Sequence record: NC_054911.1
Length of the DNA stretch: 64,000 nt
Reading direction: 5' to 3' (one strand)
Source: Escherichia phage ECO4
The translations under genes and the position numbers were made by a program. Below are positions 18,651 to 49,662 of the stretch, piece after piece. The notes beneath the pieces were generated by a model, which saw nothing but the letters and a program-made list of their open reading frames with translations, was not told where the DNA came from and ran no database searches. Every line of letters begins with the position of its first letter. Position 1 is the first letter of the stretch.

Positions 18651-18974
18651 TTAGTCTTCTATGATATCTCTATCATATCCAAGTGAAATGAGAGTTTCTT
18701 TGAAGTGTTTAATGTTCTTTTGTCTAGAATCATTAATGAAAATGACTGGATAACGAATGTTAAGAGATGTGAATCCAGCGCGTTTAGCAAGAGATACAAT
18801 CAGCGGACGATCATACTCAATCTTACCGTTATTTGTAAGAACTTTATAGAAAGTAAAAGGAGCATTAAGCTCCTTTAGAAGTTTTGTAACTGATTGACAT
18901 CCAGGACAACGACCTACTTCTTCGGGGATGCCATAGATTTCAATCTTATTCTTTAAATTCGAGTTTTGTTCCAC
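18651..18974 (-). CDS. nrdH: glutaredoxin-like protein
   Basis: CPGC redox motif, KIEIYGIPEEVGRCPGCQSV; no in-frame ATG, probable GTG start at 18974 (uncertain); terminator hairpin just downstream. Confidence 0.55.
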   Translation of the reverse strand: MEQNSNLKNKIEIYGIPEEVGRCPGCQSVTKLLKELNAPFTFYKVLTNNGKIEYDRPLIVSLAKRAGFTSLNIRYPVIFINDSRQKNIKHFKETLISLGYDRDIIED

Positions 18975-19257
18975 GAGAAATAATTCCTTGATAAGCCCAG
19001 TATGGCGGGTTAACAGAATCCTCACCAGAGTTTTCTTCAGGAAAATAAACCTGGATAACGAAGCCGGATTCATCAAAGGTGAAATAAGTAGTAGGCAGTT
19101 CACCTAACAAATCGGCACGAGCGTTGATTTCTTCGAGGTCTTGTTCACGTCCAGCCCAGAAGCTTGGGTTCAGACTACATTCATAGAAATAATAGTCATT
19201 ACCGAACATATCAAAACCATTCCAACTCTCTACTACATACCGCTCAAAACTAATCAT
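18946..19257 (-). CDS. hypothetical protein
   Basis: 103 aa ORF. Confidence 0.45.
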   Translation of the reverse strand: MISFERYVVESWNGFDMFGNDYYFYECSLNPSFWAGREQDLEEINARADLLGELPTTYFTFDESGFVIQVYFPEENSGEDSVNPPYWAYQGIISRGTKLEFKE

Positions 19258-19259
19258 AA

Positions 19260-19475
19260 TTAAGCCTTTTTATCAAGAACAGCATTCAGCTTGTTAGTAA
19301 TTTTATCCAGACGCTCATTGAACTCGCTAGAAGATAAGCCTTTTTCTGGAGAAATTAAGCTAATCACGAAAAATATAGCAATAAAAGGAATAAGAAAAAT
19401 AGCACCAACTGCCATAAACAGAAAGAATGTTACAGTTGTAAGAAAATCAGCTAAACCTTTACGAAATTTATACAT
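19260..19475 (-). CDS. small membrane protein
   Basis: 71 aa with one long hydrophobic segment. Confidence 0.5.
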   Translation of the reverse strand: MYKFRKGLADFLTTVTFFLFMAVGAIFLIPFIAIFFVISLISPEKGLSSSEFNERLDKITNKLNAVLDKKA

Positions 19476-19590
19476 ATTTTACCCTTAATTGATTAACCAA
19501 GCATTGATAAGCACTAAACTATATTGGGAATAAAATTCTGGACCAAAATGAAAAATCATATCATTTATAGTATCCATAATGTAATTCAAT

Positions 19591-20061
19591 TTAATCATGT
19601 TTCCACACCCCATCGGTATTTGACCAAAGTCGCTGATTATCTGATCCTCGCCACAGCTTTTTGGTCGGAAGATTTTTCTCATACTTCCCATCAATAATAA
19701 CATCAACATATTTAAGCATTTCTAGTTGTTTAATATCTTCAAACTTATATCCTGTCCACAACCAAATGCTTTTATTGGGATAAAGATTTTTAACTGTTTG
19801 AACGATGCAATGAATCACGTCTCTGTTATCAGGATAAAGAGGGTCACCTCCGGTTATAGTTAATCCTTCTATATAATCATTATTCAAACATTCAATTAAT
19901 TGTTCTAGTGTTTCACCAGTGAATGGAATACCATTTCTAGCATTCCATGTTGATTTATTATAACACCCTTCGCATTTATGCAAACAACCTGTAACGAAAA
20001 GAACGACCCTGCATCCAGGGCCATTAACAAAGCAGCACGGGTATATTCTGTCATAATTCAT
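19591..20061 (-). CDS. nrdG: anaerobic ribonucleotide reductase activase (radical SAM)
   Basis: MNYDRIYPCCFVNGPGCRVVLFVTGCLHKCEGC cysteine cluster; ATG 20061 overlaps upstream stop (ATGA); track start is TTG artefact. Confidence 0.9.
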   Translation of the reverse strand: MNYDRIYPCCFVNGPGCRVVLFVTGCLHKCEGCYNKSTWNARNGIPFTGETLEQLIECLNNDYIEGLTITGGDPLYPDNRDVIHCIVQTVKNLYPNKSIWLWTGYKFEDIKQLEMLKYVDVIIDGKYEKNLPTKKLWRGSDNQRLWSNTDGVWKHD

Positions 20062-20888
20062 AATAATATCCAATTTTTCCAAGCTTCATCAGTAGAATTA
20101 CAGCGTTTTAGTATAAGATGTCTAGAAACTTTTATGGCATTTGAGCACTTTTTAATTGAATCATATTTAATACCGTCAACTGAAACGGTTTTGCTAATTG
20201 GAGAAATTTTTCCATACATTGGATTTTTTGAACCAACTTGAAGTCCTTTTAAAGCTTTTGAAAGCTTTTGTCTAGATTCCAATGACATGGGAGAATTCTT
20301 TTTACCTTCAATAATTCGCTTGCGATGAAGTTCGCGTTCTTCTTCACTCAAAGAATTGTAATATTTTTTAACACCGTTTGATATAGATAATTTATCTTTC
20401 TCAGACCGCTCTCCAGCTAATTTACTTCTAACATCTTTTCGCTTCATAGCTATGCTTACGGCTTTATTTAAATTTGCTTGATGCTCTGGCGTACGTTTAT
20501 ATTTCTTTAAAGCACGTGAAATAGCTATTTTAGTTTCTTCTGTTCTCTTTTTACCTTTATTTGCTAAACTATTTTTGCGGCGATGTTCAAGTGTCTGTTC
20601 ATAGGCAGTTCCACCTTTTCCACCAGGTTTAATATTATATGTATTTTCTTTTAGACAATACTCTTCGGTTACAAGTTCAGCTTCTTTATCATACATCTGT
20701 TTTTCATTATCAAAAACATGTAAAATTTCTTTATTAAAATTTTTTCTACCATATTTTAATAAAGCGGCACGAATCAATGTTCCTGACCCCATATAACCGT
20801 CATTTATGTTATCGGTGCTATGCGCACCGATATATTCCTTTGAATTAATTATATTTGTTATTTTATAAATTATATAATACCTATGCAT
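20058..20888 (-). CDS. GIY-YIG family homing endonuclease (free-standing)
   Basis: N-terminus YYIIYKITNIINSKEYIGAHS = GIY-(10 aa)-YIG; lysine-rich C-terminal DNA-binding-like region; inserted between nrdD stop and nrdG start with overlaps at both ends. Confidence 0.75.
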   Translation of the reverse strand: MHRYYIIYKITNIINSKEYIGAHSTDNINDGYMGSGTLIRAALLKYGRKNFNKEILHVFDNEKQMYDKEAELVTEEYCLKENTYNIKPGGKGGTAYEQTLEHRRKNSLANKGKKRTEETKIAISRALKKYKRTPEHQANLNKAVSIAMKRKDVRSKLAGERSEKDKLSISNGVKKYYNSLSEEERELHRKRIIEGKKNSPMSLESRQKLSKALKGLQVGSKNPMYGKISPISKTVSVDGIKYDSIKKCSNAIKVSRHLILKRCNSTDEAWKNWILL

Positions 20889-22698
20889 GTTTTACTCGTT
20901 TTACCATTTCTTTCATTTTACCTAAATTCCATGGAACAACGCTAGGAGTTCCAAGATATCCGCATGTTCTTCTTATTGTATTCATCTTTTTAGGATCAGT
21001 TTCTCCACAAATAGAACAAATAAATCCGCTTTCAGTAGGAGTCATTTCATGGGTGCTTCCGCATGTAAAACATTTATCTACTGGCATATTAACACCAAAA
21101 TAATCTAAATGTTGTGCAGCATAATCCCATACGGCCTCAAGACCCTTTAAGTTATTTTTCATATCAGGAAGTTCAACATAAGAAATGTGACCACCTGTCG
21201 CAATGAAATGATATGGTGCTTCTCGAGAAATCTTTTCAAACGGAGTAATATTTTCTTCTACTGAAACATGGAAACTGTTAGTGTACCAGCCTTTATCAGT
21301 AACATCCTTTACACTTCCATATTTTTCTGTATCAAGTTTACAGAAGCGATAACAAAGGTTTTCAGCAGGAGTCGAATATAAACTAAAAGCAAATCCAGTT
21401 CTTTCAGTCCACTGTTTAAGATGAGCATTCATTTTAGTTAAAATTTCTTGCCCGATATCACGTCCAACAAGAATATTCAATTCATGAATACCAATGTATC
21501 CTAGGGACACTGAACTTCTACCGTTTTTAAATAACTCAATTATGTCGTCATCAGGTTTAAGACGAACCCCGAATGCACCTTCTTGGTAAAGAATAGGAGC
21601 AACAGTCGCTTTAACTCCTTTTAAGGAACTAATTCTACACATCAAAGCTTCAAAACACAAATCCATACGTTCATTGAATAATTCAACAAATTTCTGTTCG
21701 TTAAATTGTGTTCCAATATAAGAATCTAATGCAATGCGAGGAAGATTCAGTGTTACAACACCAAGATTATTACGTCCATCAAGAATTTCATTACCAGTCG
21801 AATCTTTCCATACGCTCAAGAAACTACGGCAACCCATTGGAGAAACAGGAATAGATGAACCGGTGATAGCTTTATTATTCTTAACTGAAATAATATCAGG
21901 ATACATCCTTTTGCTTGCACACTCTAGAGCAAGCTGCTTAATATCATAGTTCGGATCGTCTTTATAAAGATTAACGCCTTCTTCAACGAACATAACAAGT
22001 TTAGGAAAAATAGGAGTTATCCCATCACGACCAAGACCTTTAATACGATTTTTCAGAATTGCTTTCTGAATCATTCGTTCAGTCCAGTCAGTTCCCGTAC
22101 CAAATGTAATTGTTACAAAGGGAGTCTGTCCGTTTGAACTAAAGAGAGTATTTACTTCATATTCATAAGCTTGGAATGCATCGTATACGTCTTTTTCTGT
22201 TTTAGATTGGGCATAATTCAGTGCATCGGCGATTTGCCATTTTTCTGCGTCCTCGATATGTTTTGCATAGGTGCGTTTAACATAAGGAGAAAGTACTTTA
22301 TCTACATTAGCAAAAGTCGTTCCGCCATATTGATGGGAAGCAACTTGCGCAGTAATTTGTGCCATAATTGCAGTAGCAACGCCAATTGATTTAGGAGTTT
22401 CAATCTGTGCATTACCAAGCTTAAATCCGTTTTCAAGCATTCCTTTTAAATCTACTAAACAACAATTAGTAAATGGAAGAGCAGGGGAATAATCAATATC
22501 ATGGAAATGAATAATTCCGCTTTCATGCGCTTTCATAATAAAAGACGGGACCATATTTTTGGCAATGTGTTTAGACACAATACCAGCCATAAGGTCCCGT
22601 TGAGTTGGAAAAACACGAGAATCTTTATTAGCATTCTCGTTTAAAAGGTCTTTATTAGTTTTATGAATCAATCCTTCAATTTCTTTTTCAATTGTCAT
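20881..22698 (-). CDS. nrdD: anaerobic ribonucleoside-triphosphate reductase (uninterrupted, no intron)
   Basis: 605 aa continuous ORF; C-terminal zinc-ribbon CFTCGSTHEMTPTESGFICSICG and glycyl radical region. Confidence 0.93.
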   Translation of the reverse strand: MTIEKEIEGLIHKTNKDLLNENANKDSRVFPTQRDLMAGIVSKHIAKNMVPSFIMKAHESGIIHFHDIDYSPALPFTNCCLVDLKGMLENGFKLGNAQIETPKSIGVATAIMAQITAQVASHQYGGTTFANVDKVLSPYVKRTYAKHIEDAEKWQIADALNYAQSKTEKDVYDAFQAYEYEVNTLFSSNGQTPFVTITFGTGTDWTERMIQKAILKNRIKGLGRDGITPIFPKLVMFVEEGVNLYKDDPNYDIKQLALECASKRMYPDIISVKNNKAITGSSIPVSPMGCRSFLSVWKDSTGNEILDGRNNLGVVTLNLPRIALDSYIGTQFNEQKFVELFNERMDLCFEALMCRISSLKGVKATVAPILYQEGAFGVRLKPDDDIIELFKNGRSSVSLGYIGIHELNILVGRDIGQEILTKMNAHLKQWTERTGFAFSLYSTPAENLCYRFCKLDTEKYGSVKDVTDKGWYTNSFHVSVEENITPFEKISREAPYHFIATGGHISYVELPDMKNNLKGLEAVWDYAAQHLDYFGVNMPVDKCFTCGSTHEMTPTESGFICSICGETDPKKMNTIRRTCGYLGTPSVVPWNLGKMKEMVKRVKHA

Positions 22699-23168
22699 TT
22701 TAAACTCTTTCTAAGCTGCTTCTTAAATGAAGCTATTAATTGTGTTTTGGTGTCAAATTCATTATATTCAAATCCTCTTTGAAGCATCTCAGCCATCATT
22801 TCCTCTTTTCCTAAACGAGAAAATTCCTTTGATTTATCTCCAACGAAGTTAGGGTGAATATTATTTTGGGTGTAATCGGATTTTAAATAAGTAAGTAAAT
22901 TTTCTAACCATTCAAGATAATCAACACCCTGTCCCTTTAATCCAGAACGATTAAATTTATGCTTCATTTGACCTTCTGCAGCATTGCAGAGATTACAGAG
23001 CAATCCACGTACCTTTCCTGCTTTTGGTCCATTTAATTCATGGTCATGGTCAAGGTGATTAGCTTGAACATCAGGATTTAATTCTCGTTGGCAAATTAAG
23101 CATTTACCGTTTTGTGCATTATAAAATTTCTGTTTTTCTTCTTTATATAATTTGCCAGTCAATAACAT
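22695..23168 (-). CDS. 49: endonuclease VII (Holliday junction resolvase)
   Basis: 157 aa MLLTGKLYKEEKQKFYNAQNGKCLICQREL..., zinc-binding cysteines; matches recalled T4 gp49. Confidence 0.93.
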   Translation of the reverse strand: MLLTGKLYKEEKQKFYNAQNGKCLICQRELNPDVQANHLDHDHELNGPKAGKVRGLLCNLCNAAEGQMKHKFNRSGLKGQGVDYLEWLENLLTYLKSDYTQNNIHPNFVGDKSKEFSRLGKEEMMAEMLQRGFEYNEFDTKTQLIASFKKQLRKSLK

Positions 23169-23204
23169 AATAAAACCCTTACCTTAAATAGATAAGGGTA
23201 TTTA

Positions 23205-23480
23205 TTATTTTCAAGTATTGTAAAACATTCGATGCAATCGCTTATATTGTCGAATCATCTTTTTAGTAGGACGAGAATAGGTTCCTACGCAAGTGGTCAT
23301 ATGAGGGTCCGTAGAATGTCCTTTAATAAAAAGTTTCCAAACCTTACCGCCATTTAACTTTTCAGTATAAACCAATTCGGTTTTCATTAAAATGTCCTGT
23401 CAGAAAAAGAATTTTGAGTTTTTTCAAGTATTGTAAAACATTTGATTCAATCGCTTATATTGCCGAATCTTTTGGTCAGA
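23205..23480. repeat. direct repeat pair (about 50 bp, roughly 92 percent identical, 216 bp apart) duplicating the 3' end of pin
   Basis: ttttcaagtattgtaaaacatt(c/t)gat(g/t)caatcgcttatattg(t/c)cgaatc at 23207 and 23423; a second short repeat gtcagaaaaagaa(t/a)tttgagttt flanks copy B. Confidence 0.6.
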
Positions 23481-48834: not shown

Positions 48835-48910
48835 TGGTCGAGGCAGTAGGGATCGAACCTACGACCCAGGACTTAGAAGGTCCTTGCTCTTCCTTCTGAG
48901 CTATGCCTCG
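48835..48910 (-). tRNA. tRNA-Arg (anticodon UCU), CCA encoded
   Basis: Manual cloverleaf: acceptor CGAGGCA/TGCCTCG, anticodon loop CTTCTAA, T-loop TTCGATC. Confidence 0.8.
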
Positions 48911-48914
48911 TATT

Positions 48915-48989
48915 TGGCGGACGTGATAGGATTCGAACCTATAACCAATCACTTAACAGGCGATCGCTCTGCCATTGAGCTACACATCC
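48915..48989 (-). tRNA. tRNA-Asn (anticodon GUU), CCA encoded
   Basis: Manual cloverleaf: acceptor GGATGTG/CACGTCC, D-stem GCTC/GAGC, anticodon loop CTGTTAA, T-loop TTCGAAT. Confidence 0.75.
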
Positions 48990-48993
48990 AAAT

Positions 48994-49080
48994 TGGTGGG
49001 GAGTGATGGAGTCGAACCACCCGAGTCGCAATGACAATGGATTTACAGTCCACACCGCTACCTCTACGGGATAACTCCCC
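48994..49080 (-). tRNA. tRNA-Tyr (anticodon GUA), class II with long variable arm, CCA encoded
   Basis: Manual fold: acceptor GGGGAGT/ACTCCCC, anticodon loop CTGTAAA, long variable arm, T-loop TTCGACT. Confidence 0.7.
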
Positions 49081-49089
49081 AAATTAATT

Positions 49090-49164
49090 TGGTGGCCCTG
49101 GGTGGAATTGAACCACCATCTGGCGATTATGAGTCGCTTGCTTGAACCTTCCAGCTACAGGGCC
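49090..49164 (-). tRNA. tRNA with CAU anticodon (Ile2 or Met), CCA encoded
   Basis: Acceptor GGCCCTG/CAGGGCC, anticodon loop CTCATAA, T-loop TTCAATT; position of tRNA-Ile in T4. Confidence 0.75.
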
Positions 49165-49165
49165 T

Positions 49166-49241
49166 TGGTGCTGATTGACGGAATCGAACCGCCGACCTTC
49201 TCATTACAAGTGAGTTGCTCTACCTACTGAGCTAAATCAGC
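49166..49241 (-). tRNA. tRNA-Thr (anticodon UGU), CCA encoded
   Basis: Acceptor GCTGATT/AATCAGC, anticodon loop CTTGTAA, T-loop TTCGATT. Confidence 0.8.
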
Positions 49242-49246
49242 AAAAC

Positions 49247-49336
49247 TGGCGGAGGCGATAGGATTTGAACCTATGAGTCGCCGGAGCGACTGCCGGTTTT
49301 CAAGACCGGTGCATTAAACCACTCTGCCACGCCTCC
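49247..49336 (-). tRNA. tRNA-Ser (anticodon UGA), class II
   Basis: Acceptor GGAGGCG/CGCCTCC, anticodon stem CCGGT/ACCGG with loop CTTGAAA, long variable arm. Confidence 0.8.
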
Positions 49337-49338
49337 AG

Positions 49339-49412
49339 TCTCCGCGGCAGGATTTGAACCTACGACATTCTGCTCCCAAAGCAGACGCTCTACCAAACTG
49401 AGCTACACGGAG
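49339..49412 (-). tRNA. tRNA-Pro (anticodon UGG), CCA not encoded
   Basis: Acceptor CTCCGTG/CGCGGAG (C1-G72), anticodon loop TTTGGGA, T-loop TTCAAAT. Confidence 0.8.
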
Positions 49413-49422
49413 TAAATTAAAT

Positions 49423-49496
<74 letters not shown>

Positions 49497-49501
49497 AAAT
49501 T

Positions 49502-49588
49502 TGGTGCGAGAAGTGGGACTCGAACCCACAAGGAAATCATTCCGCAGCATTTTAAGTGCTGTGCCTTTACCAATTTGACCATTCTCGC
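49502..49588 (-). tRNA. tRNA-Leu (anticodon UAA), class II, CCA encoded
   Basis: Acceptor GCGAGAA/TTCTCGC, anticodon stem CAGCA/TGCTG loop CTTAAAA, long variable arm. Confidence 0.8.
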
Positions 49589-49589
49589 G

Positions 49590-49662
49590 CTGGGAATAAA
49601 GGACTCGAACCTTTGCATCCTGGAATCAAAATCCAGTGCCTTACCAACTTGGCTAATTCCCA
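49590..49662 (-). tRNA. tRNA-Gln (anticodon UUG), CCA not encoded
   Basis: Acceptor TGGGAAT/ATTCCCA, anticodon stem CTGGA/TCCAG loop TTTTGAT, T-loop TTCGAGT. Confidence 0.8.

Follow-up and report, generated by a model that had tools for sequence, protein, structure and literature searches.

A segH homing endonuclease gene at the nrdD/nrdG junction of Escherichia phage ECO4

Within a 64,000-nucleotide (nt) stretch of Escherichia phage ECO4 (NC_054911.1; hereafter the window), a minus-strand open reading frame (ORF) at 20058..20888 lies between nrdD and nrdG, which encode the large subunit of the anaerobic ribonucleotide reductase and its activase. We conclude with high confidence that this ORF is segH, which T-even phages carry as a selfish, free-standing gene for a GIY-YIG homing endonuclease. 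The gene is not new: segH has been known, named and experimentally characterised since 2005, and the copy in the window is one residue away from a published one. The additions made here are modest and concern the boundaries of the segH cassette, a possible capture of the segH start codon and an association of the SegH clade with the 3' end of nrdD.

The identity of the gene is evident from direct comparison. The ORF comprises 276 codons (831 nt), and its 276-residue product, with the N-terminus MHRYYIIYKITNIINSKEYIGAHS, is identical to SegH of phage RB3 (ABI48949.1) at 275 of 276 residues and to SegH of T6 (ABI48947.1) at 270 of 276; the corresponding DNA identities are 99.6% and 98.8%. Residue 231 is I in the window, T in RB3 and S in T6. 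The GenBank records AY262138.2 (RB3) and AY262137.2 (T6), each containing a partial NrdD, a complete SegH and a partial NrdG, list the gene that separates nrdD from nrdG as 'SegH, homing endonuclease', and a further T6 record (MH550421) has an 831-nt segH with the same 8-nt and 4-nt overlaps with its neighbours. The product also matches PHROG 314 'homing endonuclease' (E-value 2.5e-60). We can exclude a chance reading frame, because annotated segH or homing endonuclease genes of many phages match the ORF at 99.6-99.9% DNA identity and because a large protein search returned 550 homologues at E <= 1e-5. The name SegH comes from the work of Sandegren, Nord and Sjöberg on T6 and RB3 (Nucleic Acids Res 2005, 33:6203; title cited in PMC2988022), a paper that PMC2988022 (Table 1 and text) cites for seg and mob endonucleases targeting nrdD/nrdG.

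When the 3.8-kilobase (kb) region was searched by megablast, the same gene order was found at 96.5-97.9% identity in many Tequatrovirus genomes, with varying labels for the middle gene: 'segH: homing endonuclease' in T6 and PP01, and 'segD' in RB3, RB5, RB6, RB7, RB9 and RB10. The ACG-C40 record mislabels segH as SegD, and the annotations of ACG-C40 and LH2 cut short the N-termini of both segH and nrdG. Compared with T6 and RB3, the window has the same gene of the same length at the same junction, with the same two overlaps and only point differences; the genome around it is a different mosaic. Over 25 kb, the best matches of the window are ~96-97% identical and come from several phages, and the window as a whole appears to be a Tequatrovirus mosaic.

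A predicted I-TevI-like endonuclease

An earlier note on this DNA, made from the sequence alone, had described a GIY-(10 residues)-YIG motif and a lysine-rich C-terminal half. Both descriptions hold: the motif reads IIY at residues 6-8, then 10 residues, then YIG at residues 19-21, and the C-terminal 182 residues contain 31 Lys, or 45 Lys and Arg together. Three domains were located:

20607..20888, minus strand: GIY-YIG catalytic domain, residues 1-94 (structural model, PDB matches, invariant residues, domains of homologues)
20205..20291, minus strand: NUMOD3 DNA-binding motif, residues 200-228 (Pfam NUMOD3, E-value 5.3e-8, above gathering score)
20070..20216, minus strand: C-terminal I-TevI-type DNA-binding module, residues 225-273 (Pfam I-TevI_DNA-bd, Foldseek 1I3J)

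Support for the catalytic domain comes from homologues and from structure. Many of the homologues share 60-65% identity with SegH over the first ~94 residues, and many that match SegH at E-values of about 1e-30 themselves contain PF01541 and/or PF19835. Across 52 aligned homologues, Y8, Y19, G21, E69 and N85 are invariant, and R40 is aligned to a conserved basic position; we take these conserved residues to be the equivalents of I-TevI Y6, Y17, R27, E75 and N90. An AlphaFold model built from the alignment of the 52 homologues has a mean predicted local distance difference test score (pLDDT) of 88.6, rising to 95-98 over residues 1-90, where the elements follow the order strand-strand-helix-strand-helix. 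Foldseek searches of this model gave the I-TevI catalytic domain (1MK0 and 1LN0) as the top PDB matches, with template modelling (TM) scores of 0.59-0.64 and a probability of 1.00. The I-TevI DNA-binding domain 1I3J was also matched with a probability of 1.00, and all four best PDB matches were I-TevI. In a BLASTP comparison with T4 I-TevII, identity was 30% over 128 residues (E-value 4e-6). Between the two ends of the protein, a Lys/Arg-rich linker region spans residues ~100-213 and is helical in the model.

Several results weigh against this assignment. The general GIY-YIG profile, Pfam PF01541, gave no match to SegH at E <= 0.01, so that the profile check proposed in the earlier note failed and membership of the family rests on the other evidence. 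The matches to PF19835, PF20987 and TIGR01453 all fall under curated cut-offs: PF19835 SegE_GIY-YIG scored 18.6 bits against a cut-off of 25 (E-value 2.4e-3), and TIGR01453 'group I intron endonuclease', spanning residues 7-274, scored 50.9 bits against 56.05 (E-value 2e-13). The Pfam I-TevI_DNA-bd match likewise reached 22.5 bits against a cut-off of 27 (E-value 1.1e-4). A single-sequence phmmer search of PDB sequences returned only noise and no I-TevI. Finally, the Foldseek E-values were modest (best 4.8e-3), which is due to a three-part query being compared with single-domain targets. We do not take the missing PF01541 match as a refutation, since the other profile matches, the homologues and the structural evidence point to GIY-YIG. 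We conclude from sequence comparison and the predicted structure that SegH is probably a GIY-YIG endonuclease of the I-TevI kind, to which a DNA-binding domain is tethered. Its predicted architecture is modular in the manner of I-TevI, with an N-terminal nuclease, a basic helical linker with NUMOD3, and a small C-terminal DNA-binding module.

This nuclease and tethered DNA-binding design is the same in I-TevI, of the T4 td intron, and in I-TevII, of the T4 nrdD intron; the target of I-TevII, nrdD, is also a gene that adjoins the SegH insertion. In contrast to both enzymes, SegH is not encoded in an intron, and its helical linker is longer, with several repeats resembling NUMOD3. SegA-G of T4 belong to the same class and presumably spread by the same route of intron-less homing, co-converting flanking markers (PMC2988022), but differ from SegH in locus and target.

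Occupants of the nrdD/nrdG junction

The earlier note had placed the ORF exactly in the junction, its start overlapping the end of nrdD and its stop overlapping the start of nrdG, and both overlaps were confirmed:

20058..20888, minus strand: segH coding sequence, a free-standing GIY-YIG homing endonuclease gene (ORF, RB3/T6 SegH match, PHROG 314)
20881..20888, minus strand: segH start codon overlapping the last 8 nt of nrdD, ATGCATAG (read from sequence; T6 and RB3 alike)
20058..20061, minus strand: ATGA shared by the segH stop and the nrdG start (read from sequence; T6 annotation alike)
20881..22698, minus strand: nrdD, anaerobic ribonucleotide reductase large subunit, uninterrupted (Pfam NRDD and Gly_radical)
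19591..20061, minus strand: nrdG, anaerobic reductase activase (Pfam Fer4_12, E-value 2.4e-48, and Radical_SAM; start as in the T6 annotation)

The terminal codons of nrdD are ...AAA CAT GCA TAG, with the ATG of segH embedded within them, and the end of segH (...TTA TTA TGA) has ATGA in common with the nrdG start (ATG AAT TAT GAC). As claimed, nrdD is uninterrupted: it is a single 605-codon frame matching the full Pfam NRDD model (E-value 2.4e-171) as well as Gly_radical, and Rfam detected no group I intron family across the 64-kb window. The insertion point of the T4 intron corresponds to 22161/22160 in the nrdD of the window, which is thus an intron-less allele, as in T6 and RB51. At the equivalent point T4, LH2 and PST have an intron of 1033-1045 nt with I-TevII; segH, in contrast to this site, is inserted at the 3' end of nrdD. 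The earlier note had described a T4 nrdD intron carrying I-TevIII. The intron is indeed present in T4 nrdD, but it encodes I-TevII, and I-TevIII belongs to the nrdB intron (PMC2988022).

To survey the junction, we used a query of 800 nt made of both flanks. This matched 842 phage records, and in 730 the match spans 80% or more of the query. Among the ~842 junction-bearing records, segH DNA is present in 71 (full length in 69), with a DNA identity of at least 99% in 46 of the 71, and T4-type mobC, an HNH gene, is present in 32. In all other sampled records with complete flank coverage the flanks are contiguous, nrdD abutting nrdG. In RB51, Sf23, ECML-134 and SA35RD, for example, the junction is empty and nrdD and nrdG overlap directly by ATGA. 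T4 itself has mobC at the junction and I-TevII in its nrdD intron, and Yersinia phage PST has a third occupant, a 279-residue HNH gene that is only distantly MobC-like. LH2 carries segH and the nrdD intron together.

No similarity between SegH and MobC was detectable by BLAST. Since segH and the HNH occupants are unrelated, the junction has been invaded independently at least twice. MobC and the PST gene are alternative free-standing endonucleases at the same junction; they belong to the HNH family and lie just inside the 5' end of nrdG, whereas segH is of the GIY-YIG family and lies at the 3' end of nrdD. No intron surrounds segH, and the site, otherwise conserved, is either occupied or empty, as expected of a free-standing gene. 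The 71 records and the empty sites support the reading of segH as an insertion at the nrdD/nrdG junction, which was the central proposal of the earlier note. That note would have abandoned the proposal had the gene been present at this junction in all T4-like phages, T4 included; it is confined to the 71 records, and T4 has mobC.

The other occupants show features of their own. The PST HNH gene (locus L012, 2888-3727) starts with MNYDRFYPCDFVN and T4 MobC (L004, 5907-6539) with MNYDRIY, both copies of the nrdG N-terminus. Because these genes copy that N-terminus and at their ends overlap a regenerated nrdG start, they were inserted inside the 5' end of nrdG with duplication of it. The PST gene is labelled mobC, and its match to T4 MobC is limited to 60 residues at 38% identity. 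In PST, the 5' end of nrdG is identical to the segH-type allele described below. The body of T4 nrdG (L004, 5447-5917) is 78.6% identical to that of the window, compared with 95-98% in other Tequatrovirus phages; this mobC-linked allele is thus also diverged, and is possibly another co-conversion tract.

Diverged flanks, transfer and decay

We aligned the window with ten loci and determined identities segment by segment. Two short segments that flank segH differ from the rest of the region:

20889..20962, minus strand: segH-linked diverged 3' end of nrdD, 74 nt (segment identities to segH-less and segH-bearing phages, KM16)
20026..20061, minus strand: segH-linked diverged 5' end of nrdG, 36 nt, MNYDRIYPCCFVNG type (segment identities to segH-less and segH-bearing phages)

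Against segH-less phages, identity is 93-98% in the nrdD body, falls to 64-66% over 20889-20962 and 69-75% over 20026-20061, and returns to 96-98% in the rest of nrdG. Against the segH-bearing phages T6, ACG-C40 and LH2, the corresponding values are 94-97%, 97-100%, 97-100% and 95-97%. In every segH-bearing phage examined, segH is accompanied by the diverged nrdD end (74 nt) and nrdG start (36 nt). By the survey counts, up to ~16 records might have flanks of the segH type although segH is absent. On the nrdD side, divergence begins within the codons of the glycyl-radical motif TCGYLG; the 74 nt, together with the 8-nt overlap (20881-20888), make up the last 82 nt of nrdD and encode the C-terminus ...TPSVVPWNLGKMKEMVKRVKHA, where the T4 type has ...NPNERGFNLGKNKEIMHRVKHQ. 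Since the NrdD C-terminus is altered, the divergence is more than synonymous recoding.

At 20002-20025 (minus strand), within the 5' coding region of nrdG, a hairpin resembling a terminator, GGCCCTGGATGCAGGGTC, precedes a T-rich run. The hairpin directly follows the boundary of the segH-linked haplotype and is found in segH-less phages too, apart from scattered substitutions.

The clearest trace of movement is in Salmonella phage KM16, a Moonvirus (L010, 2897-3727 and flanks). Compared with the window, its nrdD body is 72.6% and its nrdG body 72.0% identical, while the last 74 nt of nrdD are 95.9%, segH 91.9% and the first 36 nt of nrdG 88.9% identical. The result is a ~1-kb patch with edges near window positions 21000 and 19965. 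This pattern indicates, as far as sequence comparison can, a transfer of the segH cassette between genera, and it would be expected if break repair copies segH with ~100 nt of flank on each side. Co-conversion of the flanks with segH is thus seen as a comparative signature, in the linked flanks and in the KM16 patch, and intron-less homing as the way in which segH spreads is supported by these comparisons.

Decay is also on record. In Escherichia phage PD112, an in-frame deletion at the short repeat AAATATG fuses SegH residues 1-46 to residues 243-276, leaving an unannotated remnant (L017, ~2501-2731) that keeps the segH-type flanks. PD112 has another annotated 'homing endonuclease' just upstream of nrdD (L017, 4540-5231). 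Outside the segH group, the nearest full-length relatives (P0003 and P0004) are 47-48% identical to SegH, with the same length and architecture. In distant T4-like metagenome contigs (L013, 4001-4828; L016, 417-1268), their genes follow the nrdD stop at a distance of about 50 nt, with nrdG ~2 kb beyond. One of these contigs, L013, also has a 359-residue SegE-type GIY-YIG gene upstream of nrdD, with one small ORF between. PD112 and the distant nrdD-adjacent relatives fit the life cycle of a selfish element, and the 3' end of nrdD may be the special niche of the SegH clade, in distant T4-like phages too.

A rival reading, in whose favour the PD112 remnant speaks, is that the ECO4 copy is itself decaying or domesticated: no longer an active mobile nuclease, it would persist owing to its position wedged between overlapping genes, or would now serve the phage, for example through marker exclusion or as a DNA-binding regulator. 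Embedded or overlapping arrangements do favour the retention of endonuclease genes (PMC2988022), and a 2026 paper reports a host-beneficial role for another Seg enzyme, SegB. However, the ORF in the window is of full length and one residue from RB3 SegH, it retains all residues that are invariant in the family, 46 of the 71 records have at least 99% DNA identity, and the patch has spread into a Moonvirus genome; together these observations argue for recent activity, and we regard decay or domestication as improbable. Still less credible is an ancestral segH lost from most T4-like phages: although its start and stop overlap its neighbours as those of ordinary T4 genes do, most junction-bearing records have the nrdD/nrdG ATGA overlap with nothing between, unrelated HNH genes occupy the same site in T4 and PST, and vertical descent cannot explain why segH and its flanks in KM16 are 89-96% identical to the window against a background of ~72%.

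The 10-nt string CATGCATAGG (window 20881-20890) holds the segH start and its first three codons (MHR). The same string occurs near the 3' end of nrdD in empty junctions (L005-L008), where ATG CAT AGG encodes M-H-R of NrdD, and the N-terminus of SegH is two residues longer than the M-(F/Y)-Y-T-I-Y of its relatives. It may be, therefore, that segH took its start from nrdD; alternatively, the string match is a coincidence. A MAFFT alignment with a 16-nt gap in the segH-less rows aligns a common ATGCATAGG. An ungapped, codon-by-codon alignment, in which both nrdD genes have 605 codons and ...RVKH is conserved, is equally possible, and with two equally possible alignments of the nrdD ends we put start-codon capture forward as a possibility. 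The cassette, ~940 nt long, may put a foreign allele in place of the NrdD C-terminus (~25 residues, from just behind the glycyl-radical motif) and the NrdG N-terminus (~12 residues). The recoded ends might alter recognition by SegH and so confer partial self-protection, or might mark the place of binding and cutting. A joint reading, in which the mobile unit is the ~940-nt cassette with foreign NrdD and NrdG ends, a start captured from nrdD and a SegH clade specialised on the nrdD 3' end, is speculative, and we doubt that it holds as a whole.

The segH gene was reportedly found in 3 of 18 phages screened; its product is said to cut near the gene itself, whether or not the DNA carries segH, and the gene is said to home in mixed infections. 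If SegH does cut segH-bearing DNA, the diverged flanks are not simple immunity alleles.

Expression, mobility and significance

The search for signals of its own around segH gave negative results. No late promoter TATAAATA and no MotA box was found on the coding strand over 19400-23300, sigma-70-like sites were not enriched and were fewer than in shuffled sequence, and no significant RNA structure or hairpin was found at the segH start (z 0.45). Beyond the domain architecture, position, distribution and flank signature, which are shown here, we infer the following steps of expression and mobility. Transcription of segH would proceed from upstream promoters, most likely as part of the nrdD transcript, and translation, at a low level, would depend on ribosomes re-initiating where the segH ATG and the nrdD stop overlap. 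Such a start/stop-overlap arrangement for re-initiation has been described for other free-standing endonucleases of T4 (PMC2988022). In a mixed infection, as suggested by the family and the 2005 paper, SegH would cut the nrdD/nrdG region of a phage genome near the junction. Recombination-dependent repair of the break from a segH-bearing genome would then copy segH with short flanks into the recipient. The overall process would be intron-less homing with co-conversion, and cleavage and homing by the SegH of ECO4 itself are probable by analogy with the family and the 2005 work.

When the window was queried with SegH, T4 MobB, MobC, I-TevII and the PST MobC-like protein, only segH itself matched. 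A T-even cluster of ten contiguous transfer RNA (tRNA) genes was located by Rfam at 48838-49662 (minus strand), and no further SegH-like GIY-YIG gene was found in this cluster or in the rest of the 64 kb. A 103-residue ORF at ~18946-19275 (minus strand), between nrdH and 55.8, also occurs in RB51, Sf23, PST and LH2, but T4, T6, ACG-C40 and ECML-134 lack it; this difference is an ordinary indel polymorphism. In the multiple alignment, the segment 18900-19300 had seemed diverged as well. We rejected this as an artefact of the alignment and of the small-ORF indel, direct BLAST identities to RB51, Sf23, PST and LH2 being 93.5-98%.

The finding brings little new biology, in that ECO4 is one more T-even phage carrying segH, as annotated in GenBank. 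It does show that annotation at this locus is unreliable, with segH labelled segD or SegD in RB3-RB10 and ACG-C40 and an unrelated HNH gene labelled mobC in PST. Its value is that of a clean worked example, in which one junction holds any of three alternative selfish nuclease genes (segH, T4 mobC or the mobC-like gene of PST) or none. The natural record at this junction presents the stages in the life of such an element: invasion with short co-converted flanks, spread across genera in KM16, coexistence with an intron in LH2, and decay in PD112.

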